38,285 nt of DNA from a virus, in the IMG/VR virus record IMGVR_UViG_3300033518_000151, one strand, 5' to 3'. A program made the position numbers and the translations under genes. The notes under the pieces were generated by a model. The model was not told where the DNA came from and made no database searches. It saw nothing but the letters and a program-made list of their open reading frames with translations. Positions 4,489 to 38,285 of this stretch are shown piece after piece. The first letter of the stretch is position 1; each line of letters opens with the position of its first letter.

Positions 4489-4493
4489 GCTAA

Positions 4494-4571
4494 GTTACGC
4501 ACAGTTATGCACTTTACTTTTTGGATAGTAAAATGTATAATATCTATATTACTAAGTTAAGCAATTGATAA
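4494..4571 (+). promoter_or_regulatory. Early promoter/leader cassette, copy 2 (archetype).
   Basis: gttacgcacag(4494-4504); -35-like tttact(4513-4518); 17-nt spacer ending in tg; tataat(4536-4541); leader actaagttaagcaat; ATGACAACA at 4572. Confidence 0.6.
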
Positions 4572-5654: not shown

Positions 5655-5655
5655 A

Positions 5656-5739
5656 GTTACGCACAGTTTTACATTTTACTTATAGCAAGAAAAAGAGTAA
5701 ACTGTATTCATTACAAAGTTAAGTAATAAGCAATAATAT
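5656..5739 (+). promoter_or_regulatory. Early promoter/leader cassette, copy 3.
   Basis: gttacgcacag(5656-5666), tttact-N17-taaact, leader aagttaagtaataagcaat, ATGACAACA at 5740. Confidence 0.55.
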
Positions 5740-14931: not shown

Positions 14932-14939
14932 CTTAAAAA

Positions 14940-15017
14940 GTTTCGCACAGCTTTACACTTTACTTTTTATCTGTAGCGCAGTAGTATTAAGATATTACAG
15001 AAGTAATAAGCAATACT
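14940..15017 (+). promoter_or_regulatory. Early promoter/leader cassette, copy 4.
   Basis: gtttcgcacag(14940-14950), tttact-N17-tagtat, leader agaagtaataagcaat, ATGACAAAC at 15018. Confidence 0.5.
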
Positions 15018-16747: not shown

Positions 16748-17107
16748 ATGGACTTAACTGAAGTCATTGCATATATTGAAACAGGTGGAAAAATGGACTG
16801 TGAGCTAACTGGCCTTTCTGGGGAAAAGGGTTGTTTTCAGTTCTTGCCTAGTACATGGGAAGCTTACTCAAAAGAAGTCTTAGGATATATAGCAGAGCAG
16901 ACACCAGAAAATGAGGTGATTATTGCTCATGGAAAAATCAAAAACTGGATTGAAAAAGGTTATACAGATAGAGAAATATTTTTAATATGGAATCAGGGAA
17001 ATTCTGGTCCTTGTAAGAGTGGAGTTAATAGACATGGAGTTCCTTATGACTCATGTGCTTATGCAGAAAAAGCCCTTATTTTAACCGGGAAAGTTATGCA
17101 CAGGTAA
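16748..17107 (+). CDS. Lytic transglycosylase (SLT-like) domain protein.
   Basis: Motif order IETGG (catalytic Glu), GCFQF (GLMQ-like), STW, IWNQG (AYNAG-like), YAEKAL. There is no signal peptide of its own. Confidence 0.55.
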   Translation: MDLTEVIAYIETGGKMDCELTGLSGEKGCFQFLPSTWEAYSKEVLGYIAEQTPENEVIIAHGKIKNWIEKGYTDREIFLIWNQGNSGPCKSGVNRHGVPYDSCAYAEKALILTGKVMHR

Positions 17108-17185
17108 ATATTTATGCACTTTACTTTTTTATAGTAAAAGAGTATAATTAAGGTATTACTAAGTTAAGCAATAAACAAAGGACAA
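17093..17185 (+). promoter_or_regulatory. Early promoter/leader cassette, copy 5.
   Basis: gttatgcacag(17093-17103, overlapping the end of the SLT gene), tttatgcac, tttact-N17-tataat, leader actaagttaagcaat, ATGACAAAA at 17186. Confidence 0.55.
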
Positions 17186-19281: not shown

Positions 19282-19824
19282 ATGAAGAAGAAAACAGTGA
19301 TAAACAGTGAAGAGAACAGTGTTAAAGAAAAAGATAACACTGTAATCTCTGAAGCAAAGAAAAGACAGCTATCAGGATTGAAGCCTTTTAAGAAGGGGCA
19401 ATCAGGGAATCCTAAGGGAAGACCTCAAGGAATAATGGATTTTAGAAAGAGAGTAGAGCTATCTATTAAGTTCTTAGCTGAGCAGTATGTTGAGAAGCAC
19501 AACAAAGACCCTAAGAATAAGAACAACAAAATGAAGGTTGAAGATGTTGATATAATGGGAGACATCTTTGCTCAATACATGAATCTTGCAAGAAATGGAA
19601 ATCTTAAAGCTACAGACTCACTTTTTGATAGAGTCTATGGAAAGGCAAAACAAACAGTTGAGATCGGTGGAATCGGTGGAGGTGCTATATCTCATGAAGT
19701 TGAGATGTCGCTTGCAGAAGCCGACATCGATGCTTGGATGGAAGGCTGGACAAAGCCAGTAGATAATAAAAAAGATGATAATAAACCTAACACCAGAACA
19801 GAAGGAAGTAGTCAAGAAGAGTAA
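19282..19824 (+). CDS. terS: Terminase small subunit (DUF5681-type N-terminus).
   Basis: Motif LKPFKKGQSGNPKGRPQG. It lies immediately upstream of, and overlaps, the large-subunit gene. Confidence 0.6.
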   Translation: MKKKTVINSEENSVKEKDNTVISEAKKRQLSGLKPFKKGQSGNPKGRPQGIMDFRKRVELSIKFLAEQYVEKHNKDPKNKNNKMKVEDVDIMGDIFAQYMNLARNGNLKATDSLFDRVYGKAKQTVEIGGIGGGAISHEVEMSLAEADIDAWMEGWTKPVDNKKDDNKPNTRTEGSSQEE

Positions 19825-21223
19825 AGCCCATAAGATAGCTATTTCTAAAAAGTCTTTCTTTCACTTTCTTGGATATTACATGCGTCATAGGTTGGAGCTT
19901 CCACCTGCTCTTTTTCATAAGGAGATGCTTGATGCTTTGGATTCTATAGATGAGCTTAATAAGTACATCGCTATTGAAGGCTTCAGAGGTTCAGCTAAGT
20001 CTACAATCCTTGAAGCCTTTGCTATCTGGTCGCTTATCAATGGGCTTCATAACTTCATTGTTTATATAGGGGCAACAATTGATGCTGCTCAAATGAATCT
20101 CGCTAACATCCGAGATGAGATTGAGAATAACCTAGAGCTTCAGAAAGATTTTAATATTGTTCTTGAAGATAGTAATGCTCATAACTTTAGAGAGAAGTGG
20201 AGCGAAGGACAGATCACAATAGGTAACTGCACAATGATTGCAAAATCAAGAGGGCAGAAGATTCGTGGTTCTAAGTTTAAACAAGCTCGTATTGACTTAA
20301 TTATTGGAGACGATATTGAAGATGTGAAAGATGCAGATTCAGCTGAGAAGCGTAAAGCAACTAGAGTCTGGTTCTTTACTGAAGTTCTACCTGCAACAAA
20401 GCAAGGTGTCTTAGCTGATAATGTTAAAGTTGTTTTGATTGGTAACAAAGTTCATCGTGATTGTTTGCTTGAGCATCTTTCAAAGGGAGAGATTGTGAGA
20501 GTGCTTAAGTTCGCTCTTCTTGATGAAGATGGAAATATTACATGGCCTGGACTTTATCCTGATATGGATGCAGTCAACAGAGAGAAAGAAAAAGTCTTGC
20601 TTGCAGGTGAAGGATTGGGGCAAGTCATTTGGGCTAGAGAGTATCTCTTGAAGTCAGTTGATGAAGAAGACATGGTGCTTAAGCTTGATGATATTCAATA
20701 CTATGATGATGAGTGGCTACAGAGACAACCTGTTGCCTCAGGTGTTGGAGTCGACCCTGCTATCTCTAAAAAACAGACTGCTGACTATACTGGAATGGTT
20801 AAAGCTATGGATGTTAAGAATGATGATGGTGAAAGAAGGCTTTTGATTATGAAGAACAATGTTGAGAAGAGAATGGGATTTGCTGAGACTGTAAAGGAAG
20901 CTGTAGACATTGAAGAGATAATGCCACAAGGCTCAAAGTGGTATGTTGAAAAACAAGCTTATCAACAGGCTTTAGTTGAGATACTAGAAAAGAATGGTCT
21001 GACTGTTGTTCCTATGGTATCTACAGCTGATAAGAAAAGCCGTATATCTTCAGCATGTTTTTATATTAAGAGTGGAAGAGTTCTATTCCCTAAGACTGGA
21101 GCTGAGAATGTTATTAACAATCTTGTAGGATTCGGAATTGAAGATCATGACGACTTAGCTGATGCCTGTGCTAATGTGATTCTTGGAATTGTTAAGAAGG
21201 GTGGGGGTATACTGTTTGGATAA
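19775..21223 (+). CDS. terL: Terminase large subunit.
   Basis: 482 aa. Walker A-like GFRGSAKST, Walker B-like DLIIGDDIED, a C-terminal nuclease-like region with acidic residues. Followed by the portal gene. Confidence 0.8.
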   Translation: MIINLTPEQKEVVKKSKAHKIAISKKSFFHFLGYYMRHRLELPPALFHKEMLDALDSIDELNKYIAIEGFRGSAKSTILEAFAIWSLINGLHNFIVYIGATIDAAQMNLANIRDEIENNLELQKDFNIVLEDSNAHNFREKWSEGQITIGNCTMIAKSRGQKIRGSKFKQARIDLIIGDDIEDVKDADSAEKRKATRVWFFTEVLPATKQGVLADNVKVVLIGNKVHRDCLLEHLSKGEIVRVLKFALLDEDGNITWPGLYPDMDAVNREKEKVLLAGEGLGQVIWAREYLLKSVDEEDMVLKLDDIQYYDDEWLQRQPVASGVGVDPAISKKQTADYTGMVKAMDVKNDDGERRLLIMKNNVEKRMGFAETVKEAVDIEEIMPQGSKWYVEKQAYQQALVEILEKNGLTVVPMVSTADKKSRISSACFYIKSGRVLFPKTGAENVINNLVGFGIEDHDDLADACANVILGIVKKGGGILFG

Positions 21224-21239
21224 ACATTGTTTTGTGTTG

Positions 21240-21251
21240 TATAATAAACAC
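21240..21251 (+). promoter_or_regulatory. Consensus -10 (TATAAT) 6 nt upstream of the portal ATG; predicts a leaderless transcript.
   Basis: tataat(21240-21245), N6, ATG at 21252. The preceding TG is adjacent to the hexamer (ttgtataat), not in the canonical TGn position. Confidence 0.45.
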
Positions 21252-23297
21252 ATGAATATCTTTCAAAAACTTTTTAGTAAGGCTAAGAAAAAATCTGTTT
21301 CATTTCTATCAAGCTCAACAGGTGGATTTAATGGGATGGAAGACATTTTTGATAGTAGTAACTTGAGAACTTTTAAAGACAGCCTTTATCTCTTCATAGG
21401 TGTGTCAATGATTCGTGAAACTGTTTCATCTATTCCACTTGAGATGTACCGTATCGTTAATAAAGATGGAGACACAGAAGTTGTTACTTCAGATCCTTTC
21501 CTAGATGTACTTGAAAGACCTAACTACAGACAGACACAAAAAGAATTTTGGAAACTATCGATTGCTTACTATCTTCTCGCAGGTGAGACTTTTTGGTATT
21601 TAGAGAGAGCAGAGAATGGAATACCTACAACAATGGTAAACCTTCGCCCTGATAATGTGAGAATCCTTATGTCTGAAGACAGCATGAGAATTGTAGGTTA
21701 TGAATTCGTACAATCAAATGGAGAGACTATCAAGCTTCGTGTAGAAGATATTTTGCATGTGAAGAACATTGACCCTGTAAACCCTGCTCGTGGTGTTGGA
21801 GTCGTAAGACCTGCTACACAGAGAATAATTACAGAGAAGGAAGCATCAAAGCATCAGGCTAATACTTTTAGAAATCAGGGTCGCCCTGATATTGCTGTTT
21901 TCACTTCTGTTGATCTAACTGAAGAACAAGCTACAACAGCAAGAGAGAAGTGGAATAAAATTTATGGTAAAGATAATGGCTCTCAAGCAGGGTTCTTTGG
22001 TGATGATGTTAAAAGTATTCAGCTTCTTAATGCTAACCCTAAAGAGATGGACTTTATCAACTCTCAGAACTTCTTGCGTGATGATATTCTTTCAGCTCTT
22101 CATATTCCTAAAGCTATGGTTACAAGTGATGATGTTAATCTTGCTAACTCTCGTACAGCTAGAATCAACTACATCAAGGAAGCTTGTTTGCCTTTACTAG
22201 ACACATTCCTAGACATCATCAACAACAAACTTCTTAATGATATGGGTGAAGATAAGTTTATTTCATACGAGAATCCAGTAAACGAAGACCGTGAAATGAT
22301 ACTCAAGGAAACAGTTGAGCTTAAGAATGCAGGAATTATTACAACAAATGAAGCTCGTGATTTGATGAGTTACCCACAGATAGAAGGTGAGGATGTACTC
22401 TCACAAGGTTCAATGGGACAGTTCCAACTATCTATGAAGAAGAAGGAAGTTAAAAGACTTGCTAAGAATATTCTTAAGAAGCGATCTATTCTTGTTAAGA
22501 AGTTCACAGCTGTTGAAGCATACACAAAGATGATTCAGATGGAGAAAGAAGTTAAGCGAGAGCGTAACTCAGTCTTTGCTACACGAGAACAAAAAGAAAT
22601 GTATATCAAAGCTTTTAATAATAAGATTGATAACAAGGCAAAAGTATTCAGCGAGACTATTGATGTTTATAACAATCAACTAGAGAAGAGAATTATAAAG
22701 CACATGGAAGACTTTGGAATTAACCCTGCAAAGTTCTTTGATGTATCTAGTGAAATCTCAGAAGCAAAGAAAATCTTTACACCACTTATGCAGAATATGT
22801 TTAAGAAGCTAGGGCAAGACACTCTTGATAATGTTGCAACAGGATTTTCAACAAAGGCTTCAGAACAATTCTTTACACCTGAATCAATGCTACAGGCTCT
22901 TGAACAGCGTGCTGAATTCTTTGTTATCTCAATGCTTGATACTGATTACAATCAGCTTAAGAAGATCATAGTAGCAGGAATGGATGAAGGAAAAGGAGTA
23001 GATCAGATAGGGCGTGATATTCGTGCTTACTTCACTGATATGAGTGTCTCAAGAGGAAAGACTATTGCAAGAACTGAGACAGGTCGCTTAATGTCTCAAG
23101 CTACTAATGAAGCATACAATCAGAGTGCTCTAGTAACAGGTAAAGAGTGGATGAGTGCACAAGATTCAAAGGTCCGTCATGAGCATCAAGTTAATGATGG
23201 AATCATAGTAGATACAAATGGAGTGTTCCCTAATGGTGAGCACTATCCGGGAGAATTAACAATCAACTGCAGATGTGCACTAGCTCCTGCTGTTTAA
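21252..23297 (+). CDS. Portal protein fused to a Mu F / SPP1 gp7-like head-morphogenesis domain.
   Basis: The ATG at 21252 is preferred to the track start at 21183. The N-terminal ~400 aa are HK97-type portal-like. The C-terminal motifs IARTETGRLMSQATNEAY ... DSKVRHEHQVNDG ... INCRCALAP are typical of the MuF domain. Confidence 0.75.
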   Translation: MNIFQKLFSKAKKKSVSFLSSSTGGFNGMEDIFDSSNLRTFKDSLYLFIGVSMIRETVSSIPLEMYRIVNKDGDTEVVTSDPFLDVLERPNYRQTQKEFWKLSIAYYLLAGETFWYLERAENGIPTTMVNLRPDNVRILMSEDSMRIVGYEFVQSNGETIKLRVEDILHVKNIDPVNPARGVGVVRPATQRIITEKEASKHQANTFRNQGRPDIAVFTSVDLTEEQATTAREKWNKIYGKDNGSQAGFFGDDVKSIQLLNANPKEMDFINSQNFLRDDILSALHIPKAMVTSDDVNLANSRTARINYIKEACLPLLDTFLDIINNKLLNDMGEDKFISYENPVNEDREMILKETVELKNAGIITTNEARDLMSYPQIEGEDVLSQGSMGQFQLSMKKKEVKRLAKNILKKRSILVKKFTAVEAYTKMIQMEKEVKRERNSVFATREQKEMYIKAFNNKIDNKAKVFSETIDVYNNQLEKRIIKHMEDFGINPAKFFDVSSEISEAKKIFTPLMQNMFKKLGQDTLDNVATGFSTKASEQFFTPESMLQALEQRAEFFVISMLDTDYNQLKKIIVAGMDEGKGVDQIGRDIRAYFTDMSVSRGKTIARTETGRLMSQATNEAYNQSALVTGKEWMSAQDSKVRHEHQVNDGIIVDTNGVFPNGEHYPGELTINCRCALAPAV

Positions 23298-23299
23298 AA

Positions 23300-23314
23300 T
23301 GGTATAATAATTTT
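23300..23314 (+). promoter_or_regulatory. Extended -10 promoter (TGgTATAAT) 6 nt upstream of the protease ATG; predicts a leaderless transcript.
   Basis: tg(23300-23301) g tataat(23303-23308), N6, ATG at 23315. Confidence 0.55.
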
Positions 23315-24001
23315 ATGAATGAACTAGCAAAAAAACTTCTACAAGAAAAAAGAGATAAGGCCATTGAGATGGTTGGTAAAAAACTTGATGTTGAAGTTAC
23401 TGGTAAAGCAATCTCTATTGATGAGAAAAACTTTACAGCAACATTCGTTATGTCTACATCTTCAATTGATAGACATGGCGACATAGTAGATCAGAACACA
23501 TGGAATCTTTCTTACTTCAAGGAGAATCCTTATTTTGCTTTACAGCATCGCTCTGATGAATTCCCTATTGGTAAGTGGATAAGTGTAGGGCTTGAGAACG
23601 ACCCTAACAATGCAGGACAGCAAAGACTTGTAGGAGTTGCTAAGTTTAATACTAAGTATGAAGATGGAGCTAGAGCTTTTGACCATGTGATGGAAGGTGA
23701 AATGAATATGGTATCAGTAGGCTTTATTCCTCGTCGTGTTGAATATGATGAAGTGAAAGATGCTTTTGTGCTTTATGAATGTGAGCTTATCGAGTGTTCA
23801 CTCGTTGGTATCGGTTCAAATCGTCAGGCTCTTGTTAAGACAGTAGATGAAGTTGTTGAAGTAAAAGAAGCTGAAACAATTAAAGAGAAGATAATTAAAG
23901 TTGCTAATGAACTTGACAAAGAAATCAAAGTCAGTAATACTGCAACTATCAATCAGTTACGTGCACGTGATTTGCTATTCAAAGCAATCCACAAAATGTA
24001 A
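23315..24001 (+). CDS. HK97-family prohead protease (S78-like).
   Basis: The ATG at 23315 is preferred. Motifs MSTSSIDRHGDIVDQ and VSVGFIP. Located between the portal and capsid genes. Confidence 0.7.
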   Translation: MNELAKKLLQEKRDKAIEMVGKKLDVEVTGKAISIDEKNFTATFVMSTSSIDRHGDIVDQNTWNLSYFKENPYFALQHRSDEFPIGKWISVGLENDPNNAGQQRLVGVAKFNTKYEDGARAFDHVMEGEMNMVSVGFIPRRVEYDEVKDAFVLYECELIECSLVGIGSNRQALVKTVDEVVEVKEAETIKEKIIKVANELDKEIKVSNTATINQLRARDLLFKAIHKM

Positions 24002-24081: not shown

Positions 24082-25404
24082 ATGTATAAATTTTTTAGAC
24101 TCGTTGCAGGGAAGAAATTCTACTCAGACGAGAAGGGTATCCTTGTAAAGGATGCAGAAAACAACTTTGTTGAAATGCTTGAAACAGATACAGTTGCTAA
24201 AGAAGCAGTTGTTGAAGATGAAGGTGTTGCAGAAGTTGAGAAGATGCTTGCAAAGGCAGTTCTTCAAGTGAAGGCTTCAGCTACAAAAGAGCTAAGTGAT
24301 TCACAGGTTAAAGCTATTGAAGCAGTAGGTGAACTCTTTAAGGGTATCACTGCACAGGCTAAGTCAAGTTCAAGTAAAATCGCTGAATCAATGGAAAAGG
24401 CATCATTTGATGTTGAAGCTGTTGAGAAGGGTATTGCTGATCTTGCTGCTCGTCAGCGCTCAAGTTTTGCATTTACCATCACTGGTAAGTCAGACCTTAA
24501 GTTCCTTACTAAGTCAACTGCACATGATGATCTTACTGGAGATGTGATTGTTCCTCAGCTTGTTCCTGAGATTACTCGTAATCCAGTAAGACAAGTGTTT
24601 ATCGAAAGTATTGCAGACGTTACACCAAACATGACATCTGACAATCTTTCTTATGTTGAAACAACAACAGAAACAGGTGCACCTGCTACTACAGCAGAAC
24701 TTGCAACTATTCCTGAGAAGGACTTTGCATTCCAAGAATACAAAGCACCTCTAAAGAAAATCACTGTTGCTAACAAGCATTCAGTAGAGCTTCTTTCAGA
24801 TAGTGCTCAGCTTGTGAACGCTATCAAGGGATGGCTACAGGAAGACATCAATATCGTTACAGACCAGCAGTTGCTCAATGGTAACGGTACTGGTGCTAAC
24901 CTTCAGGGTGTTATCGGTAGAGCTACTCTACTCGATGCAACTGCAGTCGGTACAAAGCGTGTAGCTAATGCTAACCTTTACGACGTTATCCGTGTTGCTC
25001 TTACTAAGATTGCAGTCGCAGGACAAGGCAAGTTTATGGCTAACTACGTTATCCTTAACCCAACTGATGCTGATGAACTCGACCTTACTAAGGACTCACA
25101 GGGTCAGTATGTACTTCCTCCATTCAGAAGTGCAGACGGTACAACCATCAAGGGTGCTCGTGTGATTGAGAATACTGGTATCACTGCAGGGACTTTCCTT
25201 GTTGGTGACTTCCGTAAGCTTCACATTGGTACTAAGGGTGGTGTTGAAATTGAAATGACTAACTCAGATGGAACAGACTTCGTTAAGGATATCCTTACGG
25301 TTAAACTACGTCGTCGTGTTGCTTCTTATGTTCGTATCAATGACAACGGAGCGTTCCAAACTGGTGTGATTGCAACCGTTAAGGCTGCACTTATCGCTGT
25401 CTAA
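24082..25404 (+). CDS. Major capsid protein, HK97 fold, with an N-terminal scaffold-like delta domain.
   Basis: 440 aa. Coiled Ala/Glu/Lys-rich first ~110 aa, then HK97-like core motifs (LLNGNGTGANLQGV, ILNPTDADELDL). Confidence 0.8.
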   Translation: MYKFFRLVAGKKFYSDEKGILVKDAENNFVEMLETDTVAKEAVVEDEGVAEVEKMLAKAVLQVKASATKELSDSQVKAIEAVGELFKGITAQAKSSSSKIAESMEKASFDVEAVEKGIADLAARQRSSFAFTITGKSDLKFLTKSTAHDDLTGDVIVPQLVPEITRNPVRQVFIESIADVTPNMTSDNLSYVETTTETGAPATTAELATIPEKDFAFQEYKAPLKKITVANKHSVELLSDSAQLVNAIKGWLQEDINIVTDQQLLNGNGTGANLQGVIGRATLLDATAVGTKRVANANLYDVIRVALTKIAVAGQGKFMANYVILNPTDADELDLTKDSQGQYVLPPFRSADGTTIKGARVIENTGITAGTFLVGDFRKLHIGTKGGVEIEMTNSDGTDFVKDILTVKLRRRVASYVRINDNGAFQTGVIATVKAALIAV

Positions 25405-25409
25405 TCTTT

Positions 25410-25784
25410 ATGATTAAAGACATCAAGGTGGGCACAATCCTAGAAAACTCTATTCGTGAATTCACAAAAGTTCTTGTTATAAAAGACGGAATGTATGGAA
25501 TTACAGGATGGAGCAACCTCAAAGGAACAAAGGAAGCGAAAGTTGTTGTAACATATCTCAACTCTTTCGGTCTTGAGTCAGCTGAGGTTAAGATTGTGAA
25601 AGGCAATAAGCCAGCTGTAGCAAGCGCTCCTGCAACAACTGGTGATGCACCTTCTAAGACTTCTCTCGGTAAACTTTCAGCAGAAGAGGTTAAGGCTCTA
25701 GCAATAGAACTTAAACTTGATGCAGAAGGAACTAAGCCTGAAGTATTGGAAAGACTCTTTGCACATTACGGACTGAATGCCTAA
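25410..25784 (+). CDS. Small protein with a C-terminal Rho_N/SAP(HeH)-like DNA-binding motif.
   Basis: The C-terminus LSAEEVKALAIELKLDAEGTKPEVLERLFAHYGL matches the helix-extended-helix pattern. Confidence 0.45.
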   Translation: MIKDIKVGTILENSIREFTKVLVIKDGMYGITGWSNLKGTKEAKVVVTYLNSFGLESAEVKIVKGNKPAVASAPATTGDAPSKTSLGKLSAEEVKALAIELKLDAEGTKPEVLERLFAHYGLNA

Positions 25785-25889: not shown

Positions 25890-26390
25890 ATGGCAGCAAC
25901 AATTGAAATAGATGAAGCAAATGGAGCAGGAGAAACGCTATCACACAACATCACTAATGGAAATATGGGAAGTGTTGATGCAGCTAACCTTGACCCAGTT
26001 GCTAACCCTATCACAGCAGGTAACAGATCATTTGCAAAATACCAGAAGCTTCATGTTACAGCTATGGGCGGTTCAAGTAAAATTGATAACCTCAAAGTAT
26101 GGAGAACAGGAGCGCTTGGAGGTGCTGCAACTCATGTTACTAATGCAAGACTTTCAGCGTATGTAAACATTTCTTATGCAACACCAGTTGCATCAGCAAT
26201 TACAAACGTTGACCAAGCAATGCCGACTTCTGTTCCTGCAACAGCAAATCTCGGTATTGGTGCATCACTATCAGGAAGTTTGACTGCAGTTGGTTCAAGT
26301 GATTACCTCGTGCATCAGCTCATTACTAACGGAGCAGATACAGCAGGAAGTACATCAACACTCAACTTCCAGTACGACGAAACAGCATAA
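25890..26390 (+). CDS. Hypothetical beta-rich (Ala/Thr/Ser/Gly/Asn-rich) virion-type protein.
   Basis: 166-aa ORF; first gene of the accessory block between the capsid and connector genes. Confidence 0.55.
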   Translation: MAATIEIDEANGAGETLSHNITNGNMGSVDAANLDPVANPITAGNRSFAKYQKLHVTAMGGSSKIDNLKVWRTGALGGAATHVTNARLSAYVNISYATPVASAITNVDQAMPTSVPATANLGIGASLSGSLTAVGSSDYLVHQLITNGADTAGSTSTLNFQYDETA

Positions 26391-26403: not shown

Positions 26404-26646
26404 ATGAAAAAGATAAACCCAGAATCAGTTGGAGCTATCGGCTACAAAGAGGATCTTACTTCTGTTGAACTTGTTGGAAAACATGTTGATAGTCTTACAG
26501 GTCTAGTGTTTGAAACAGAAGAAGCTTACTGCAACCATATTTCACCGGTTACAGGTTCAAGCCCTACTGAAGTAAGACATCAAGACATTCTCACAGATGG
26601 AGAATACTCAAGGCAATCTGACGCAGCACTGAAAAGAGCTGAGTAA
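26404..26646 (+). CDS. Hypothetical small acidic protein.
   Basis: 80-aa ORF. Confidence 0.5.
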   Translation: MKKINPESVGAIGYKEDLTSVELVGKHVDSLTGLVFETEEAYCNHISPVTGSSPTEVRHQDILTDGEYSRQSDAALKRAE

Positions 26647-26680: not shown

Positions 26681-26727
26681 ACCCTAGTAATGCAATACTT
26701 AAATTAAATACTATGTACTACTAGGGT
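26681..26727 (+). promoter_or_regulatory. Intergenic hairpin.
   Basis: 9-bp stem accctagta (26681-26689) / tactagggt (26719-26727) enclosing an AT-rich 29-nt loop. Confidence 0.35.
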
Positions 26728-26749
26728 GCATAGTATTTTATATAACCAA

Positions 26750-27160
26750 ATGACAAAATTTAAACACAATAAAACAGGGGAAGAAGTAGAGATTGAAAAG
26801 TGGGTGTGGGCTATTGTTTATAAGGATGATACTGAGCTTCATCAGTTCGACTTAGAGACAAACCTATTCCATTCAATAACTGAAGTTGATAAATCTAAAG
26901 GGGTAAAGATGCTTACTCTTTATAGAACAACGGACAATGAAGATATGAGTAAACGCTTTGATATTATCATTCCTGAGGATTGTGATATTTTTGTTAAGTA
27001 TAGGAATGTTATACTAGAAGCATCTACACCAGAAGAAGTAAGATTCAAAGTATATATGTTCGGTTATGGTAACAAGAATTACCAAGTTATCAATTATATT
27101 TTGCCTAATGACAAATTAGTTCAAGCAGGTGAAGATATAGATATTATCAATTTTATATAA
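26750..27160 (+). CDS. Hypothetical protein.
   Basis: The ATG at 26750 (aaATGACAAAA context) is preferred to the track's GTG at 26726. 136 aa. Confidence 0.5.
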   Translation: MTKFKHNKTGEEVEIEKWVWAIVYKDDTELHQFDLETNLFHSITEVDKSKGVKMLTLYRTTDNEDMSKRFDIIIPEDCDIFVKYRNVILEASTPEEVRFKVYMFGYGNKNYQVINYILPNDKLVQAGEDIDIINFI

Positions 27161-27166
27161 ACACTT

Positions 27167-27976
27167 ATGATCTCAACAGGCGATGGCTACATTGGAGCTA
27201 CAAAACAACTCGTTCCTTATTTAAAAACTGCTTCTATTGCAACAATTGCACTTCAGCCTTTTTCTCTGTTCGATGTCGCAGGAAATCCGGGAGCAGGAAC
27301 ACTTGCAGTAGGTAACACAACAACAGGTGTTGTTCCTACAGATGTAACAAACGGATTCCCTGTTCTTAATGCTTTTACAGGTGGGGCTGTAGGCTATCTT
27401 ACTCGTGTTGCTTACTCTTCTTCTGTTGCTTGTCGTCTTAAAGTATGGGATAGACTCTGGCACGCTGGAGCAATCTCAATGACAACTCTTGCAACAACAA
27501 CATTCTCATCACAGCCTTCTTATGTTGGGAGACTTCCTAACTCTGATTACAACGGTCTTTTCATTATCATTGAAATTAACACAGCAGTTTCAGCAACAGC
27601 TACAACTATTAACGTTACATACACAAATAAAGATGGAACAACTGGAAGAACAACAGGAGCTACTGCATCACTATCAGGATATACAAACAAGCGTTGTATT
27701 ATTATGCCACTTCAAGCAGGTGATAACGGAGTTCAAAAGATTGAGTCTGTTACAGTTGGTGGAACAGTAGCAACAACAGGAACATTCAACGTGATTGTTG
27801 CAAGACTTCTTACAGATAACTTAAGAGTTCCACTCGCTGGCTTTGGTGATGTTCTTGGTCTTGATAGAACTGGAATGCCACAAATTTTTGAAGACTCAGC
27901 ACTTTGGGTAACAGTACAAGCAGACTCAACTGCATCAGGTATTCCTGATCTGTTAATGGAGGTAGCAAACGCATAA
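27167..27976 (+). CDS. Hypothetical beta-rich virion-type protein.
   Basis: 269 aa, Thr/Ala/Gly/Val-rich with alternating-polarity strands. No motif recognised. Confidence 0.55.
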   Translation: MISTGDGYIGATKQLVPYLKTASIATIALQPFSLFDVAGNPGAGTLAVGNTTTGVVPTDVTNGFPVLNAFTGGAVGYLTRVAYSSSVACRLKVWDRLWHAGAISMTTLATTTFSSQPSYVGRLPNSDYNGLFIIIEINTAVSATATTINVTYTNKDGTTGRTTGATASLSGYTNKRCIIMPLQAGDNGVQKIESVTVGGTVATTGTFNVIVARLLTDNLRVPLAGFGDVLGLDRTGMPQIFEDSALWVTVQADSTASGIPDLLMEVANA

Positions 27977-27982
27977 TAAAAT

Positions 27983-30676
27983 ATGTCAGTATTTCCCTTT
28001 ATAAAAGTAGCTAAAGGGAAAGGAAGCTTAACAGATAGAGCAAGTAACCTTTTCTTTAAAAGAAATTATCCGGGAGCACTTAAGAGTGTTCTTGGTAGTT
28101 GGTTATTCCCTAACAATGCACCGCCTTCAGTTGTTCTTAATACTCCTATTAATGCAGGTACTACTTCAGACACAACACCTACACTAGACTTCACAGGAAC
28201 AGACGATCTTGGAAGTTCTATTGAGTACAATATACAGCTTGACACTCTCTCAACTTTTGATGGAGCACCTTCAAATAATGATTCAGCAGTAAATCAATGT
28301 GATACTTATATTCGTGCAGACGTTCCTACACTAGATCAAGGAAAAGTAACAACAATGTCTGTTCAGTATTATCAGCCATTCTTGGCTACTAACAGAAGTG
28401 TTCTACAGTTCAAGCTTCCTAATGGTTCAGGTACTATCACAAAAATCTCTCTGTTTCTTTATAACTTAGGAGGTTCTTCAACAGGAGAAAATCTAAACCT
28501 TCACGAATTAACAAGAGTTATAAAAGAAGGAAACGGAGTTGCTAACTCAGGAGCTAACTGGAAGAGATACAACGGAGTGAATAACTGGACAACAGCAGGT
28601 GGAGACTTTAATGCACCTGTTGTTTGTTCTGTTGTAGATACAGGGACAGGATGGAAAGAGTATGTGCTAAAAGGAACAGGAGCAACTAATCCTATTACAG
28701 CGCTTACTTGGAATAGTCTAGTTGGGGTTATCATTAAAGCAGCTAATGAATCAGGTGTAACAAAAAACAATGGCTATGCTACTAAAGAAGCAGCTGAAGA
28801 AAATCTAAGGCCATTCATAAGAATCACCACAACAACAGGTGGTCCACTTATTAATGCAAGTTCTGTTACTGATGCAGGTTTTGTTAATCCTGATAACGGA
28901 GCAGACACACATCCTTTTATTTCAGGGGATAATATTCAATACACAGTTCAATCAGCTTTACCGGGAGCAACTTACTATTGGAGGGTAAGAGCTAAAGACG
29001 TTACAGGAACAAATGTTTGGAGCGCTTGGAGTAGTACATATAGCTTCTTAATTTCTTCAGCAACACAGGTTCAAGTAACTAAGTCCGTTAACTATCTCAT
29101 TAAGAGAAGTGTCTCAGTCTCTAAGAGTCTTGCTTATAAGATACGCTCATCAACAACAGCCTTCACTAGATCGATTCAATACCGAGTGAGAAGGACTCCT
29201 GCAGGTCTTACAAAATCTGTTCAGTATTCTGTTAAGTCTACAAAGCAAATCACTAAGAGTCTTAACTATAAAACAAAGACAACAGCGAGCCTTACTAAAG
29301 GTATTATTTATAGAATCGATAGAGTATTCTCAATCACTAAGGGACTTGTTTACTATATAAGAAAGAGCACGATACTTTCTAAGTCTGTTCAGTATCTCGT
29401 TAAGAGAACAACCTCAGCAACTAAAAGTGTTAAGTATACAATCAAGCTTCCTTTTGCAATTACTAAGAGTGCTAAATATACAATCAGACTTGCTCGTTCA
29501 GTAACAAAGTCAGTAGCTTACTCTGTTAAACATGCTCAGTCAGTTACTAAGGCTGTTAAGTACACAATCAGACTAAACGCAGGTCTTACTAAGTCTCTTC
29601 AGTATGCTCTCAAGCGATCTAATGTAATAACAAAATCAGTAGCTTATAAAGTTAAGGCCATTGCTTCAATAACAAGAAGTATTATTTACCGAGTTAAAGC
29701 TCCTTCATCGCTCACAAAGTCAGTAGCATATAAAATTAAGGGTCCACGATCTGTTACAAAGTCAGTTGATTATAAGCTTAAGCGTAACCTATCATTTACA
29801 AAGTCTCTTAGTTATAAAATCGGAAGGCTTGCAAGTCTTACAAAGTCTCTTACGTATACAATCATCAAGCTTAGATCAGCAACAAAATCTGTAAGCTATA
29901 AAATCAGAACAGTAACAAGTCTTGCAAAGAGTCTTGTTTATTCTGTTATTGCTCCTACTTCAATCAACAAGGCTATTACTTATCTTGTCTCTTCAGCAAG
30001 AAACTCATCAAAGACACTCTCTTATAAAATTAAAAGAGCTTCTTCAGTTACAACTTCAGTTACTTACAATGTCTTTAACCCAGGGGGAACATCTCAGGTA
30101 ACAAAAACAACAGCTTTACAGTATGCAATCAAAACTGCTAAAAGTGTTAGCAAGTCAGTTGCTTATAAGGTCCGTAGAATTGGCTCAATAGCCTTCAGCC
30201 TTTCTTACAGCCTTAAACATGGTACTTCTACCACAAAGTCAATTAGATATGCCTTAAAAGTCAATTTTGGGCTTAGTAAAGGAGTCTCATACAAGGTAAA
30301 AAGACCTTTACTAACTACAATCTCACTTGCCTATAAAGTAGGACAGCCTGAATCAATAACAAAATCTTCTCAGTATGCAGTCAAGAGTTCAAGGAATCTT
30401 ACAAAAACAGTAGGCTATAAAGTCGCTCATCCGTTCAGTAAGCTGCTTTCTATCGCTTATAACATTGTAAGACTCTTCACTTTGTCGATTACTTACACGA
30501 TTATAAAGCCTGCAACAATCACAAAGAGCATTACTTATGTTGTTAGAATCTATCCTTACAGTGATAAAACAAGTCCTTACTCTTTGAAGGCTTCACCATT
30601 CTCAGGAAAGACCTCACCATTCGGCTCAAAAGTTTCACCTTACGGAGATAAGAACAACCCCTATACAAATCTTTAA
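27983..30676 (+). CDS. Large repeat-containing surface/fibre protein (Fn3-like + DNRLRE-like N-terminal domains, 35 x 14-aa repeat shaft, SPY/SPF tail).
   Basis: 897 aa. N-terminal TPTLDFTGTDD...YNIQLDT and YYWRVRAKDVTGTNVWSAWSSTYSF are Fn3-like. NRSVLQFKLPNGSGTITKISLFLYN...ANWKRYNGVNNWTTAGGDF is DNRLRE-like. Then come 35 tandem units with consensus TKSVxYxVKxxxSx, and the protein ends with (SPY/SPF) x5. Confidence 0.8.
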   Translation: MSVFPFIKVAKGKGSLTDRASNLFFKRNYPGALKSVLGSWLFPNNAPPSVVLNTPINAGTTSDTTPTLDFTGTDDLGSSIEYNIQLDTLSTFDGAPSNNDSAVNQCDTYIRADVPTLDQGKVTTMSVQYYQPFLATNRSVLQFKLPNGSGTITKISLFLYNLGGSSTGENLNLHELTRVIKEGNGVANSGANWKRYNGVNNWTTAGGDFNAPVVCSVVDTGTGWKEYVLKGTGATNPITALTWNSLVGVIIKAANESGVTKNNGYATKEAAEENLRPFIRITTTTGGPLINASSVTDAGFVNPDNGADTHPFISGDNIQYTVQSALPGATYYWRVRAKDVTGTNVWSAWSSTYSFLISSATQVQVTKSVNYLIKRSVSVSKSLAYKIRSSTTAFTRSIQYRVRRTPAGLTKSVQYSVKSTKQITKSLNYKTKTTASLTKGIIYRIDRVFSITKGLVYYIRKSTILSKSVQYLVKRTTSATKSVKYTIKLPFAITKSAKYTIRLARSVTKSVAYSVKHAQSVTKAVKYTIRLNAGLTKSLQYALKRSNVITKSVAYKVKAIASITRSIIYRVKAPSSLTKSVAYKIKGPRSVTKSVDYKLKRNLSFTKSLSYKIGRLASLTKSLTYTIIKLRSATKSVSYKIRTVTSLAKSLVYSVIAPTSINKAITYLVSSARNSSKTLSYKIKRASSVTTSVTYNVFNPGGTSQVTKTTALQYAIKTAKSVSKSVAYKVRRIGSIAFSLSYSLKHGTSTTKSIRYALKVNFGLSKGVSYKVKRPLLTTISLAYKVGQPESITKSSQYAVKSSRNLTKTVGYKVAHPFSKLLSIAYNIVRLFTLSITYTIIKPATITKSITYVVRIYPYSDKTSPYSLKASPFSGKTSPFGSKVSPYGDKNNPYTNL
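29078..30562 (+). repeat. About 35 diverged tandem 42-nt (14-codon) coding repeats.
   Basis: Repeats counted by hand in the translation. Most units are exactly 14 aa, with a few of 11-17 aa. Confidence 0.9.
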
Positions 30677-30698: not shown

Positions 30699-31262
30699 AT
30701 GAGCACCAAACCTTACACAACAAAATTAGAAGTTGAAAATTACTTACTAACAACAGTTGACCCTTCATTCGATACTCAGATCGCAACATGGATAAGTGCA
30801 ATGAGTCGCTATATCGATAATTACTGCAATAGAATCATTTATGATGATACTCCAAGTACAATGCTTTATGATGGAGACAATACAGATATTATTTTAATTA
30901 AAGACTGTGTTGATATTACTGAGGTAAAGCTTGATGGTGTTGTAGTAGATACATACTTCAAATACCCACAAGGAAAAACTTACACAAGTAGAATCAAACT
31001 ACAAGATCAGTATTTTTCAAATGGTCTTCAGAATGTTTCTGTTACTGGTATTCATGCAATGGATAAAGTTTTGCGTGATGATATTAAGTTCGCTTGTACT
31101 GTTCTAGTAGCAGGAATTGTTAACGCTTCGATGCTCGGAAATAAGAGAGGAACAACAGAAAAGATTGGAGGTTATGCAATCACTTACAAAGATAATGTTC
31201 AAGAAGCTGATTACTCAACAGCTAAAAAGATTCTCTCAAGCTATAAGCGTATAGCTCTATAA
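30699..31262 (+). CDS. Head-tail connector (gp6-like) protein.
   Basis: 187 aa. First gene after the head/accessory block, in the canonical HK97-like gene order. Confidence 0.45.
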   Translation: MSTKPYTTKLEVENYLLTTVDPSFDTQIATWISAMSRYIDNYCNRIIYDDTPSTMLYDGDNTDIILIKDCVDITEVKLDGVVVDTYFKYPQGKTYTSRIKLQDQYFSNGLQNVSVTGIHAMDKVLRDDIKFACTVLVAGIVNASMLGNKRGTTEKIGGYAITYKDNVQEADYSTAKKILSSYKRIAL

Positions 31263-36196: not shown

Positions 36197-37129
36197 ATGA
36201 TAGGAACTATTTTTACAATCACAAACAAAGCAAACCATTCAAGGGTTGTAACTTTCAACGACCATTCAAGCTCTAACTTTATTGCTCTTCAGAGTTATCC
36301 TACTTTTGAACTTGAAGTAAGAAATGATGAGATGAGTAAAGAAGGACAGCATGGAGTGTGGGACTTCTTCTCATTCTATGGAAAGAGACTTATAACATTT
36401 GAAGGTGTTATTGTAGGTAACAATGAAGCAGATGTGCATACTCTAAAAGAATTGATGCAGTCAGTTTTAGAGCTTCCTATACAGCCAACTTCAACAGATG
36501 ATGGAACAGTTATAATCAAATGGACAGACCCACTTGGAAGAGCTGTACAAACTGAAGCAAAGATTGCTACAACAATAAGACTTCACAGAGACATGAAGCA
36601 ACTCTTTAGGCTAGACTTTCAATTCTCTCTTAAGTCAGCAAATCCTATCATTGAGACACAGACATTATATGAAGTTGATGGATTGCGTGGCTATCCACTT
36701 TCAGGCATAACCTTGCCTGTTTTATTGCCTTTCACACTACCTACAAACTATATAAATTCATTCCCGGTAACTAATGCAGGAAATACTGAAGCTGATATTG
36801 TAGTAAAGCTTTATGGAAGCTCTATAATGACAATCAACAATCCTACTCTCACGAATCTTACAACTGGAAAATCAATTACAATCAATGTTGCTCTTATCAA
36901 TGAGACTAAGTATGTCTCTATTAACTCACAGAATGGGCAGGTACTAGATCAAGACGGAAATGATTTGAGTGGAAGCATTCAATCAGGAAGTGCTTTTGTA
37001 AGACTTCAGACAGGTATAAATAATCTCTTCTACTCTTCAGCAGAAAGTACAAACGAATATAATCCACTTGTTACAGGAATAGATCCTACTGAAATAATTG
37101 AAACAGATCACAGGGATGCAATACTTTAA
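36197..37129 (+). CDS. Distal tail protein (Dit).
   Basis: 310 aa, directly after the tape measure gene. Confidence 0.55.
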   Translation: MIGTIFTITNKANHSRVVTFNDHSSSNFIALQSYPTFELEVRNDEMSKEGQHGVWDFFSFYGKRLITFEGVIVGNNEADVHTLKELMQSVLELPIQPTSTDDGTVIIKWTDPLGRAVQTEAKIATTIRLHRDMKQLFRLDFQFSLKSANPIIETQTLYEVDGLRGYPLSGITLPVLLPFTLPTNYINSFPVTNAGNTEADIVVKLYGSSIMTINNPTLTNLTTGKSITINVALINETKYVSINSQNGQVLDQDGNDLSGSIQSGSAFVRLQTGINNLFYSSAESTNEYNPLVTGIDPTEIIETDHRDAIL

Positions 37130-37131
37130 TT

Positions 37132-38187
37132 ATGCAAATTAAAATCTACACAAAAACTCATAGCCCTCTTACAACACTTATTCAAACAAGAACAGAGTCA
37201 GACTTTAATGCTCTAACTTATAAAGAGACACTTCATCAAGTTGGTGATTGTTCTTTCTCTATGAGACTTGATGGAAGCAAAGCAAACCTTGTTAATCTAA
37301 AGCAGTTCAATATTGTTGAAGTATGTGAAGATAATGGAACAGTAAAATGGAGTGGAGTAATTATCTATAGAAGAGTTCTTTTGAATGTAGTTAATATTAC
37401 ATGTTTTAGTATTGCTCACTTACTTACTAAAAGAATTACACCTGCAAACAATGCACAGGTAGGAACAGCCGGAGCAGTAGTAACAAACTTACTTGCTACA
37501 ACTAATGCTGTACTTGATACACAAATTACTGCAGGAGTATTAACGGACCCAGCAAACGTGAATCTTACTTTTAATCGCTCTTCTGTATTCGATGCACTAA
37601 AGACTGTATCTGAAGCTTCAGGTGGACAGTTCAGAATCAACCCTGACAGAACACTAGACTTTAAAACTTCAATAGGAAGTGATCTATCTTCTTCAGTTAT
37701 TTTTCAGTACAATATAGATTTAATTGCAGCAGCTAATATTCTTACATTCCAAGTTGAAGATGATGCTAAGTCTATTACAACAAAAACTTATGGAGAGAGT
37801 GGGGCACTTACAACAACTCAGACTAATACACCACTCTATGATGAATACGGATTGTTTGAAGAATACAAGAATTATAGAGAGCTAGGAAATCAGGGAACAC
37901 TAGATAGTACAGCTTTAGAAAATAACAGAGGTTCAGAGTTATCCCCACTTTTGAATCTCTCACCTGATGTAATAGATAACTTTGAGGTAGGTGATCTAGT
38001 AAAAGTTATCATTAAAAACAAGCTCATCAATATCAATTCTGTTTATCAAGTTACTGAAAAATCGGTTAAAATAAAGGGAGGAAACGAAAGACAGATAACA
38101 ATCAGAGTTAACAGCAATAACTCAGACTTCTTTAAACAGATCAAAGACCTTAAAAGGTCAGTTGACTTGTTGATAAGAACAGTGTAG
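37132..38187 (+). CDS. Tail-associated / baseplate hub protein (Tal N-terminal domain-like, Gp37-like).
   Basis: 351 aa. It follows Dit and precedes the fibre gene on the circular map. Confidence 0.5.
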   Translation: MQIKIYTKTHSPLTTLIQTRTESDFNALTYKETLHQVGDCSFSMRLDGSKANLVNLKQFNIVEVCEDNGTVKWSGVIIYRRVLLNVVNITCFSIAHLLTKRITPANNAQVGTAGAVVTNLLATTNAVLDTQITAGVLTDPANVNLTFNRSSVFDALKTVSEASGGQFRINPDRTLDFKTSIGSDLSSSVIFQYNIDLIAAANILTFQVEDDAKSITTKTYGESGALTTTQTNTPLYDEYGLFEEYKNYRELGNQGTLDSTALENNRGSELSPLLNLSPDVIDNFEVGDLVKVIIKNKLININSVYQVTEKSVKIKGGNERQITIRVNSNNSDFFKQIKDLKRSVDLLIRTV

Positions 38188-38285
38188 TCGTGGTATCATA
38201 TAATATATGTCAACAAGAACTTTTTTCCTAAATTCAAACACTACTCAATATGGTGAAGAAGAATTAAACGCAGTTCAGAAATTTC
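38145..38285. repeat. Terminal direct repeat, right copy (identical to 1-141).
   Basis: Exact 141-nt identity with the window start. The partial ORF starting at 38207 duplicates the start of the gene at 63. Confidence 0.95.

Follow-up and report, generated by a model that had tools for sequence, protein, structure and literature searches.

The window analysed here is 38,285 nt of viral DNA (IMG/VR virus record IMGVR_UViG_3300033518_000151), and the gene in question is an uninterrupted open reading frame (ORF) on its plus strand (27983..30676, stop codon included) that starts with ATG and encodes a fibre-like protein of 897 aa. The ORF begins 7 nt past the stop of the preceding ORF, and 23 nt further downstream begins the gene for a head-tail adaptor (30699..31262, plus strand; phrog_442, E = 5e-15). 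Because promoter- and terminator-like matches in this block were no commoner than in shuffled sequence, the fibre gene was assigned to the late structural operon. The sole competing ORF at the locus (89 aa, minus strand) was without support.

From its N-terminus, the protein opens with 44 aa for which no confident structure was predicted (27983..28114; AlphaFold2 (AF2) predicted local distance difference test score (pLDDT) 35-40). These are followed by the first half of a split Fn3/Ig-like domain (aa 45-95; 28115..28267; TPTLDFTGTDD...YNIQLDT; pLDDT 77-96), an insert in a loop of that domain which is a possible CBM96-like module (aa 96-279; 28268..28819), and the second half of the domain (aa 280-358; 28820..29056; PLINASSVTDAGF...YYWRVRAKD...WSAWSSTYSF; pLDDT 73-96). 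The shaft that comes next is made up of 35 tandem beta-repeat units (aa 366-860; 29078..30562), and the protein ends in a tail of P-Y/F heptads (aa 861-897; 30563..30673).

The units of the shaft are arranged head to tail, and 31 of the 35 are exactly 14 aa long; the other four are 15, 15, 19 and 12 aa. Their profile is h-T-K-S-h-x-Y-x-h-(K/R)-x-x-x-S, where h is hydrophobic, with Tyr at one fixed position in 35/35 units and Lys or Arg at position 3 in 29/35. This periodicity is far beyond chance: there were 30 Tyr-Tyr pairs at lag 14, whereas 20,000 shuffles averaged 2.8 and never exceeded 11, and the residue-identity autocorrelation at lag 14 was 0.297 (shuffles, 0.094 +/- 0.012). Since the autocorrelation at lags 28 and 42 equalled that at lag 14, the shaft has no two-unit super-repeat. 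It contains 96 Lys or Arg residues compared with 3 Asp or Glu (isoelectric point (pI) 10.8, net charge about +93) and is without Cys, Trp and Met. Toward the C-terminus, Pro followed by Tyr or Phe occurs six times at an exact period of 7 (aa 858, 865, 872, 879, 886 and 893), half the 14-residue period of the shaft, and the first of these pairs (aa 858-859) falls inside the last shaft unit.

Tandem Repeats Finder reported nothing at a score of at least 30 in the DNA of the array. Pairwise DNA identity between units had a mean of 47% and a maximum of 74%, and for the conserved Ser of the units codons of the TCN as well as the AGY family were used. On this evidence the array is old and is kept at the protein level by purifying selection on the unit. 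The original prediction, which was made from the letters of the window without database searches, had described about 35 units at about 29078-30562, nearly all of 14 aa, a different micro-repeat at the C-terminus, and divergence of the repeats at the DNA level. All of these were borne out, the array at the same coordinates, and the micro-repeat turned out to be more regular than had been claimed. What had been missed was a large family of related proteins, the conserved C-terminal end of that family, and two conserved small ORFs alongside the gene.

A metagenomic family with exchanged N-termini

A word-indexed search found 97 relatives of the 897-aa protein. In an exhaustive phmmer search of 1.84 billion representatives with aa 360-897 as the query, 418 clusters (at 50% identity) matched at E ≤ 1e-3, 238 at E ≤ 1e-10, and 121 at E ≤ 1e-30. 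The family clusters ranged from 400 to 2446 aa in length, and all were metagenomic. Unit statistics were taken from 168 family proteins, each with at least six recognisable units, in which the spacing from one unit start to the next was 14 in 2287 cases and 15 in 1147. The family consensus was I-T-K-S-L-x-Y-x-V-x-x-x-x-(S/A) for the 14-mers and I-T-K-S-L-K-Y-T-V-K-T-T-P-S-A for the 15-mers; in other words, a common core of I-T-K-S-L-x-Y-x-V is followed by a loop of 4-6 residues. In hand-registered, non-overlapping 10-unit windows from 11 proteins, Lys3 and Tyr7 were invariant or nearly so, and all insertions and deletions lay in the loop after position 9-10.

The array was always C-terminal in the family, preceded by a median of 430 residues and followed by a median of 56, and the number of units detected per protein was 5-57, which is an undercount. 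A PY/F heptad tail like that of the 897-aa protein was found in 71 of 172 family proteins (e.g. YPYSKKTSPYSKKTSPYTRL), other aromatic-periodic tails (DDY, SSTYTK, GWxT) in 54 of the 172, and other endings in the remainder. The N-termini, by comparison, were mutually unrelated: LamG (PF13385), CBM96 (above threshold in P0015), double Kelch propellers, split Fn3 domains into which LamG or MAM modules are inserted, and jelly-roll-like domains. One member, from locus L012, had just 35 residues ahead of the first unit and was essentially repeats plus tail.

Domain exchange was also found within the head. AF2 folded aa 45-95 together with aa 280-358 as one Fn3/Ig-like domain of 7-8 strands (pLDDT ~95), so that in the model these segments form a compact beta-sandwich interrupted by a 184-aa insertion. 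In about 90 metagenomic proteins both halves of this domain were present at 50-68% identity while the material between the halves was unrelated, and other family members carried LamG, MAM or other modules at the same insertion site. P0024 and P0007 contained an un-inserted 110-aa version of the domain, annotated as Ig_Rha78A_N (PF25788). In the 897-aa protein itself, the Pfam scores were 19.7 bits for Ig_Rha78A_N (gathering threshold 27.4) and 15.8 bits for fn3 (PF00041; threshold 25); both sub-threshold matches covered only the C-terminal half of the split domain, which also had a weak Pfam match to Pur_ac_phosph_N. Matches of the split domain to Fn3 structures in the PDB were weak, both by sequence and by Foldseek. 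The Fn3-like signatures first reported are therefore best described as the two halves of a single split domain: the fold was recovered by AF2, and the Pfam scores stayed below threshold.

The insert matched CBM96 (PF24517) at 19.3 bits (cut-off 26, E = 0.001), over profile positions 8-74 only, and was modelled by AF2 at a pLDDT below 50. Only two homologues of it were found in 5.8 billion proteins, too few for transitive annotation; the closer of the two, P0358, also matched CBM96 below threshold (20.9 bits). NCBIfam, which includes a DNRLRE model, gave no match to the 897-aa protein at E ≤ 1. Of the DNRLRE- or carbohydrate-binding-like region that had been proposed for the centre of the protein, only the second description gained backing, and weakly, from CBM96, and a lectin-like or carbohydrate-binding head is plausible from these profile matches.

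No Pfam, PHROGs or NCBIfam model covered the repeat in a search with the full protein. The matches of the protein were spurious or sub-threshold, such as one to the DNAJC11 beta-barrel that came from the alternating pattern of the units. By phmmer, no PDB chain matched the repeat, and a 10-unit profile gave only spurious PDB matches (E > 0.2). Neither the locus nor the 897-aa protein nor W166, a conserved neighbouring ORF described below, had a counterpart by megablast and tblastn among 50,697 phage records, apart from matches at ~20% identity to unannotated huge-phage contigs. Searches of the literature on 14-residue phage-fibre repeats and on phage fibres of the candidate phyla radiation (CPR) turned up no description of this repeat family. 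The repeat thus belongs to no named family in these databases, nor could it be placed in one in the original prediction. Phage fibres and decoration adhesins are known as a class, and what appears to be new here is the repeat, which by sequence is undescribed and possibly novel in structure as well.

A conserved gene slot at the head/neck boundary

In the window, the fibre gene follows a gene for an HK97-type major capsid protein (MCP; 24082-25404) and precedes the adaptor gene. Between the MCP and fibre genes lie a 124-aa ORF (25410-25784) and four plus-strand ORFs: W166, a conserved 166-aa ORF after the MCP (25890..26390); W80, a small ORF (26404..26646) with same-position homologues in about half of the loci described below, often between W166 and W144; W144, a conserved ORF upstream of the fibre slot (26726..27160; homologues 28-45% identical); and W269, an orphan 269-aa ORF (27167..27976).

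This slot was surveyed at 34 loci in IMG/VR and 12 in GTDB genomes, all anchored on W166. As a rule the order was MCP, W166, (W80), W144, one or more large proteins, and adaptor. A repeat protein occupied the slot at ~26 of the 33 loci that extended far enough, a count that takes in proteins recognised by a PY tail and by diverged units that the hidden Markov model missed (L011, 1031 aa; L033, 499 aa; L024, 378 aa). The loci carried at least five MCP types unrelated by BLAST, and the fibre slot was kept in both siphovirus-like and SU10-like genomes. P0005, P0004 and P0013 each lie after an MCP and a W144 homologue and directly ahead of an adaptor, and P0006 (L009) lies directly ahead of an SU10-type adaptor on a podovirus-like contig. 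The fixed position at the head/neck boundary therefore spans different capsid, portal and adaptor families, and the predicted placement of the gene in the head module holds not only for the window but for dozens of related phages.

Because the shaft and tail are conserved, the N-terminus is a plug-in site, and the gene is fixed at the head/neck boundary, we are inclined, by a modest degree, to read the gene as encoding a virion-surface fibre or adhesin on the capsid or neck, made with the head-neck proteins and additional to the tail-tip apparatus. We infer a virion protein that binds glycans and is anchored by its C-terminus, and that could work in the following way. A short unstructured leader and the Fn3/Ig-like domain, whose loop carries the insert, would form the distal head; the insert would be a beta-sandwich module and probably carbohydrate-binding. 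Each of the 35 units would give an amphipathic strand of ~10 residues (I-T-K-S-L-x-Y-x-V-K) and a variable loop of 4 residues, and the shaft would be a rigid spacer, its length depending on the number of units. Because the conserved end of the family is the C-terminus, the anchor is probably C-terminal and the displayed head N-terminal, and the last units together with the aromatic heptads would dock the protein on the particle. Through reversible contacts between its variable head and surface glycans, the protein may raise the rate of host encounter in the manner described for Hoc, pb10 and the head fibres of phi29. In this phage, though not as a family trait, the strong positive charge of the shaft (+93) may also favour non-specific, electrostatic binding to anionic envelopes.

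Several observations weigh against a surface fibre of this kind. The evidence for its presence in the virion is indirect, and the family was found in no cultured phage among the 50,697 phage records. The position of the gene does not separate attachment to the capsid from attachment to the neck. Tails have between 2 and 7 heptads, and other C-termini are found in about a quarter of the family, which leaves a single conserved docking mode unproven. The charge of the shaft is not conserved, the pI of family members ranging from 4.6 to 10.8 with P0001 and P0015 at ~4.6. The carbohydrate-binding assignment of the head comes from sub-threshold matches. Finally, the shaft was modelled at low pLDDT, 55-70 in the full-length AF2 run and ~50 in the run on ten units, which makes the strand assignment provisional.

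The same gene order bears on where the protein would be attached. A fibre on the adaptor or connector, that is, a collar, whisker or side fibre of the neck and not of the shell, is a possibility that we hold tentatively. The gene would then resemble that of T4 fibritin, which lies beside neck genes, and indeed the repeat gene is always immediately upstream of the adaptor, across at least five unrelated MCP clusters. The SU10-like protein P0006 (L009) has both another adaptor and another tail (...VDG..HYT), while genomes with siphovirus-type adaptors have aromatic-heptad tails, and slot neighbours in related phages have N-termini and enzymes that are typical of tail fibres and spikes. However, the correlation between tail and adaptor comes from one contrasting locus, and adjacency of genes is no proof of contact between their products. 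Genes for head fibres and decoration proteins also adjoin the MCP gene (PMC7602432). That the protein is no virion component at all, being secreted, intracellular or the product of a mis-called ORF, is hardly credible. The evidence for its incorporation into virions is indirect and no homologue is annotated, but the ORF is long and uninterrupted, lies in a structural operon without a supported competitor, and belongs to 418 clusters with a conserved architecture and purifying selection on the unit, and the modular adhesin-type domains fit a virion protein.

Of the conserved partner ORFs, W166 is notable by itself. It had more than 1,100 metagenomic homologues, mostly 70-84% identical (range 57-84%). 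Identity to the window copy was still 57-74% in the company of at least five MCP clusters with no BLAST link between them, and the window MCP is a singleton among these clusters. Judged by these identities, W166 is far more conserved than the capsid proteins that accompany it. Its termini were invariant (MAATVEIDEANGA... and ...QYDETA), and some copies had a 75-aa insertion after EANGA. It was also found at L001 (8628-9140), L006 (7970-8698), L007 (8153-8890) and 46 further loci. Homologues of W144 (~140 aa) immediately preceded the fibre gene in L001, L004, L006, L007, L009 and nearly all W166 loci, with the conserved motifs W.W..Y.DGTEL.QFD and KVY.FGY...LPDDR. W144 always came after W166, with a W144 homologue also present in the Dojkabacteria-labelled L004 without W166 nearby, and is a possible assembly factor or attachment partner. 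Since the W166-W144 pair was also found without a repeat protein downstream, it is not merely an accessory of the fibre. Neither W166 nor W144 had a Pfam, PHROG or PDB relative, including when profiles of both were run against the PDB. W269 had no homologue in the related loci, the 97 relatives, Pfam, PHROGs or the PDB; it sits where related phages carry extra slot proteins (LamG, pectate-lyase-like) and is possibly an extra slot protein itself.

The content of the slot differed among loci. In L024 (10620-13930) it was split into several genes, whose products are a protein of 330 aa, a pectate-lyase-like one of 389 aa (PF12708) and a repeat protein of 378 aa that begins and ends with LLLETGDxLLLE motifs, and in L037 (1829-3949) a separate LamG protein preceded a head-less repeat protein. 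Such pectate-lyase-like and LamG neighbours are typical host-glycan-directed virion proteins. The 330-aa protein and a 321-aa protein shared an N-terminal M-A-D-x-K-I-T-x-L-T ... T-K-K-I-T, and L036 had a non-repeat fibre-like protein as an extra slot protein. A 565-aa slot protein in L010 (11435-13132) and L011 (11470-13170) had three jelly-roll-like repeats and two fibre units only, and ended in a distinct globular domain (...WNGQS..APS...LQIYN...) that also ends P0129, P0158 and P0159.

The protein with the largest aligned share of the query (P0001; 87%, at 29% identity) is encoded in L004 (6919-19195), on a contig labelled Candidatus Dojkabacteria. Its context includes a serine recombinase, an 815-aa protein without matches, a 707-aa lectin-like protein and a T4 gp10-C-like baseplate or tail protein; neither W166 nor a recognisable MCP lies within 10 kb of P0001. 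L004 may represent a prophage, or an element derived from a phage, within a CPR genome. A few relatives were labelled Dojkabacteria or Saccharibacteria, and some came from 0.1-um groundwater fractions. Host assignment from GTDB bins was tried and set aside: contigs with W166 (20-90 kb) were binned with CPR (Moraniibacteriota, Woesebacteria, Microgenomates), Gammaproteobacteria, Nitrospirales and an archaeon, and because bins scattered in this way are most likely mis-binned phage contigs, no host claim is made.

The rest of the window is that of a complete tailed-phage genome. An identical 141-nt direct repeat at 1-141 and 38145-38285 indicates a genome of 38,144 bp that was circularly assembled or is terminally redundant. 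Ahead of the MCP gene are genes for a large terminase (19775-21223), a portal fused to a Mu-F-like head-morphogenesis domain (21183-23297; domain at aa 460-704), and a protease/scaffold (23273-24001); the portal fusion recurs in L001 and L006. Downstream of the adaptor are two further connector proteins, a tail tube and a tape measure, followed by Dit (36197-37129) and a Tal-like protein (37132-38187). After the Tal-like gene, across the genome ends, lies a 582-aa protein (63-1811), fibre-like in its N-terminal half and rich in Gly over its long C-terminal half (GGxGGxGG runs), which is likely a tail-tip fibre or receptor-binding protein. Because the phage owns this tail-tip set (Dit, Tal-like protein and 582-aa fibre), the 897-aa protein is considered an additional fibre. 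After the gene for the 582-aa protein come a 121-aa ORF of holin/spanin type and, at 2192-2920, a CHAP-like lysin that has a hydrophobic segment at its C-terminus. A 73-nt intergenic element occurs four times (4493-4565, 5655-5727, 14939-15011 and 17100-17172; copies 60-73% identical). It holds TTTACTTTTT ... TATAAT-like motifs and a conserved ATTACTAAGTTAAGCAAT end, and its copies are probably repeated early/middle promoter or leader elements.

Predicted fold of the shaft

Two AF2 runs were made, one of the full-length monomer with a 46-sequence alignment (overall pLDDT 58) and one of ten units as a monomer, for which 20 rows of non-overlapping repeat windows had been aligned in register. Both gave one beta-strand of ~10 residues per unit, a turn in the variable loop, and an intrachain beta-meander. 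By prediction, and provisionally, the shaft is all-beta without helices. The original prediction had named structure modelling of the repeats as a check; in these monomer runs regularity was recovered, one strand to a unit, and confidence in a fold was not, so that the models describe neither disorder nor a confident fold. Such behaviour is expected for an obligate oligomer, for a fold that depends on a partner, or for a fold absent from the training data.

Foldseek comparison of both models with the PDB found no analogue at E ≤ 0.001, which is a weak test with low-confidence monomers. The top non-significant matches of the 10-unit model were FapC, bactofilin and CsgA, which have stacked beta-solenoid or amyloid folds. 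Against BFVD, the full model had five matches at E ≤ 0.001 with TM-scores of at most 0.38, which were not relied on given the low confidence of the model; one of these was a phage CBM96 protein (E = 5.8e-4, TM-score only 0.24).

In an extended strand, positions 1, 3, 5, 7 and 9 of the unit (I, K, L, Y and V) would lie on one face, and T, S and the variable residues on the opposite face. An amphipathic strand of this kind must pack against something. A beta-solenoid with one coil per unit was considered and is unlikely, as a loop of 4-5 residues would be too short to bring the chain back for a parallel strand, and the interior of a 14-residue coil would have no room for Tyr together with two large aliphatics. 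A monomeric, rod-like decoration protein similar to Hoc would instead stack its strands as a beta-serpentine or in a solenoid-like manner, with one copy per capsomer or site and the six PY heptads placed on a symmetric ring of subunits. The intrachain meander of both models and the FapC, bactofilin and CsgA matches are consistent with such a rod, the head modules are of a monomer type, and the adhesins Hoc and pb10 sit as monomers at the centres of hexamers (PMC7602432). We nevertheless think it fairly unlikely: the strongly hydrophobic strand face (I/L/Y/V) would be left unburied in a single-layer sheet, the pLDDT was 50-65 and no structural analogue was significant, a 28-residue super-repeat, often the product of hairpin pairs, is missing, and the heptads vary in number from 2 to 7.

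It is likewise doubtful that the array is itself the ligand-binding part, a multivalent Lys/Tyr surface that would act as a lectin or bind polyanions such as teichoic acids, capsule or extracellular polymeric substances, and not a passive spacer. The excess of Lys and Arg over Asp and Glu (96 vs 3) and the near-invariant Lys and Tyr of each unit would suit such a surface, as would the L012 member, which has no head domain, and the body of reovirus sigma1 binds sialic acid within its beta-spiral repeats (PMC3150272). But Lys3 and Tyr7 are kept in more than 3,000 units and presumably across many hosts, which a structural role fits better, and the acidic P0001 and P0015 (pI ~4.6) show that the charge of the shaft is not conserved.

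A bolder form of the surface-fibre reading, which is possible but tentative, combines two proposals: that the 14/15-residue unit forms a previously unseen beta-fibre fold, oligomeric or self-stacking with Lys-Tyr ladders, and that it is part of a portable fibre kit with W166 and W144. The kit would be horizontally transferable onto the capsids or necks of unrelated lineages, with the heptad tail as a generic docking peptide and the N-terminus as a plug-in site for any glycan-binding module. If the surface fibre is confirmed, a new type of repeat would stand beside the beta-spiral, triple beta-helix and beta-bracelet architectures of viral fibres, and more than 400 unannotated clusters from uncultivated phages, many of them from groundwater or CPR-rich samples, would gain a name and a model. 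With its constant shaft and tail, its exchanged N-terminal modules and a slot kept across capsid lineages, the family lends itself to the study of how phages retarget adhesion by domain swapping and is a possible display scaffold.

Comparison with known fibres

The repeat had been likened at first to the triple beta-spiral of the adenovirus fibre and reovirus sigma1. In these shafts, tandem pseudo-repeats of ~15 residues follow a consensus (positions a-o) in which c, e, g, k and m are hydrophobic and j, in the g-h-i-j turn, is Pro or Gly (PMC3150272). The spacing of 14 or 15 residues in the present family agrees with this length. When c, e and g were aligned to unit positions 5, 7 and 9, these were hydrophobic in 91-100% of units, and m, aligned to position 1 of the next unit, was hydrophobic in 82% of 14-mers and was Ala in 15-mers. 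However, k was hydrophobic in only 12-30% of units, and Pro or Gly occupied the turn position j in only 17% of 14-mers and 9% of 15-mers; the Pro of the 15-mers (56%) sits at k, one position past j. Neither the 10-unit profile against the PDB nor Foldseek with the low-confidence monomers matched the adenovirus fibre or sigma1. Because of the misfit at j and k, the resemblance is real but partial, extending to the period and to three alternating hydrophobics, and membership is unsupported.

That the shaft is a homotrimeric triple beta-spiral is accordingly improbable in our estimation. The period, the hydrophobic positions 5, 7, 9 and 1, and a low-confidence monomer model, as expected for an obligate oligomer, are in its favour; but Lys3 and Tyr7 have no counterpart in the consensus, no adenovirus or reovirus chain was retrieved by either route, and the modules at the N-terminus (LamG, Kelch, Fn3, CBM) are as a rule monomers and not trimeric knobs, with no trimerisation module seen. 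The systems are alike in their ~15-residue pseudo-repeats, alternating hydrophobics, short variable loop, and a long shaft with a receptor-binding head, which is presumed here. They differ in the near-invariant Lys and Tyr, which are unique to the present family, and in the variable head, which is C-terminal in adenovirus fibre and sigma1 and N-terminal here.

The surface fibre that we favour has closer functional parallels among phage head proteins. Hoc, pb10, phi29 gp8.5 and SPP1 gp12 raise binding to cell-surface carbohydrates and are non-essential (PMC7602432). T4 Hoc and T5 pb10 are encoded among head genes, are presumably of a dispensable type like the present protein, and display Ig/Fn3-type and glycan-binding modules off the capsid, with a proposed role in weak host adhesion (PMC7602432). 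Unlike the 897-aa protein, they are short strings of Ig domains without a shaft of 14-residue repeats, and they have no sequence similarity to it. In phi29, the gene for gp8.5 adjoins that for the MCP, and a role in attachment to the cell wall has been suggested for this fibre, which stands out from the head (PMC7602432), whereas the 897-aa protein is predicted to be all-beta without helices and has its conserved end at the C-terminus. Searches of PHROGs, Pfam and the PDB gave no match between the 897-aa protein and the Hoc, pb10, gp8.5, Dec, Soc or gpD families.

The Orsay virus delta protein, a head fibre with a beta-bracelet, offers a parallel of another kind, since a short-period beta repeat formed a new oligomeric fold that was unrecognisable by sequence (PMC7565637). 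It is non-homologous and differs in its period of 8 (a strand of 5 residues and a loop of 3, compared with 14/15 here), its pentameric state, its (L/V)xVxV pattern, and its origin in a eukaryotic RNA virus. The beta-bracelet indicates that short-period beta repeats can conceal wholly new fibre folds.

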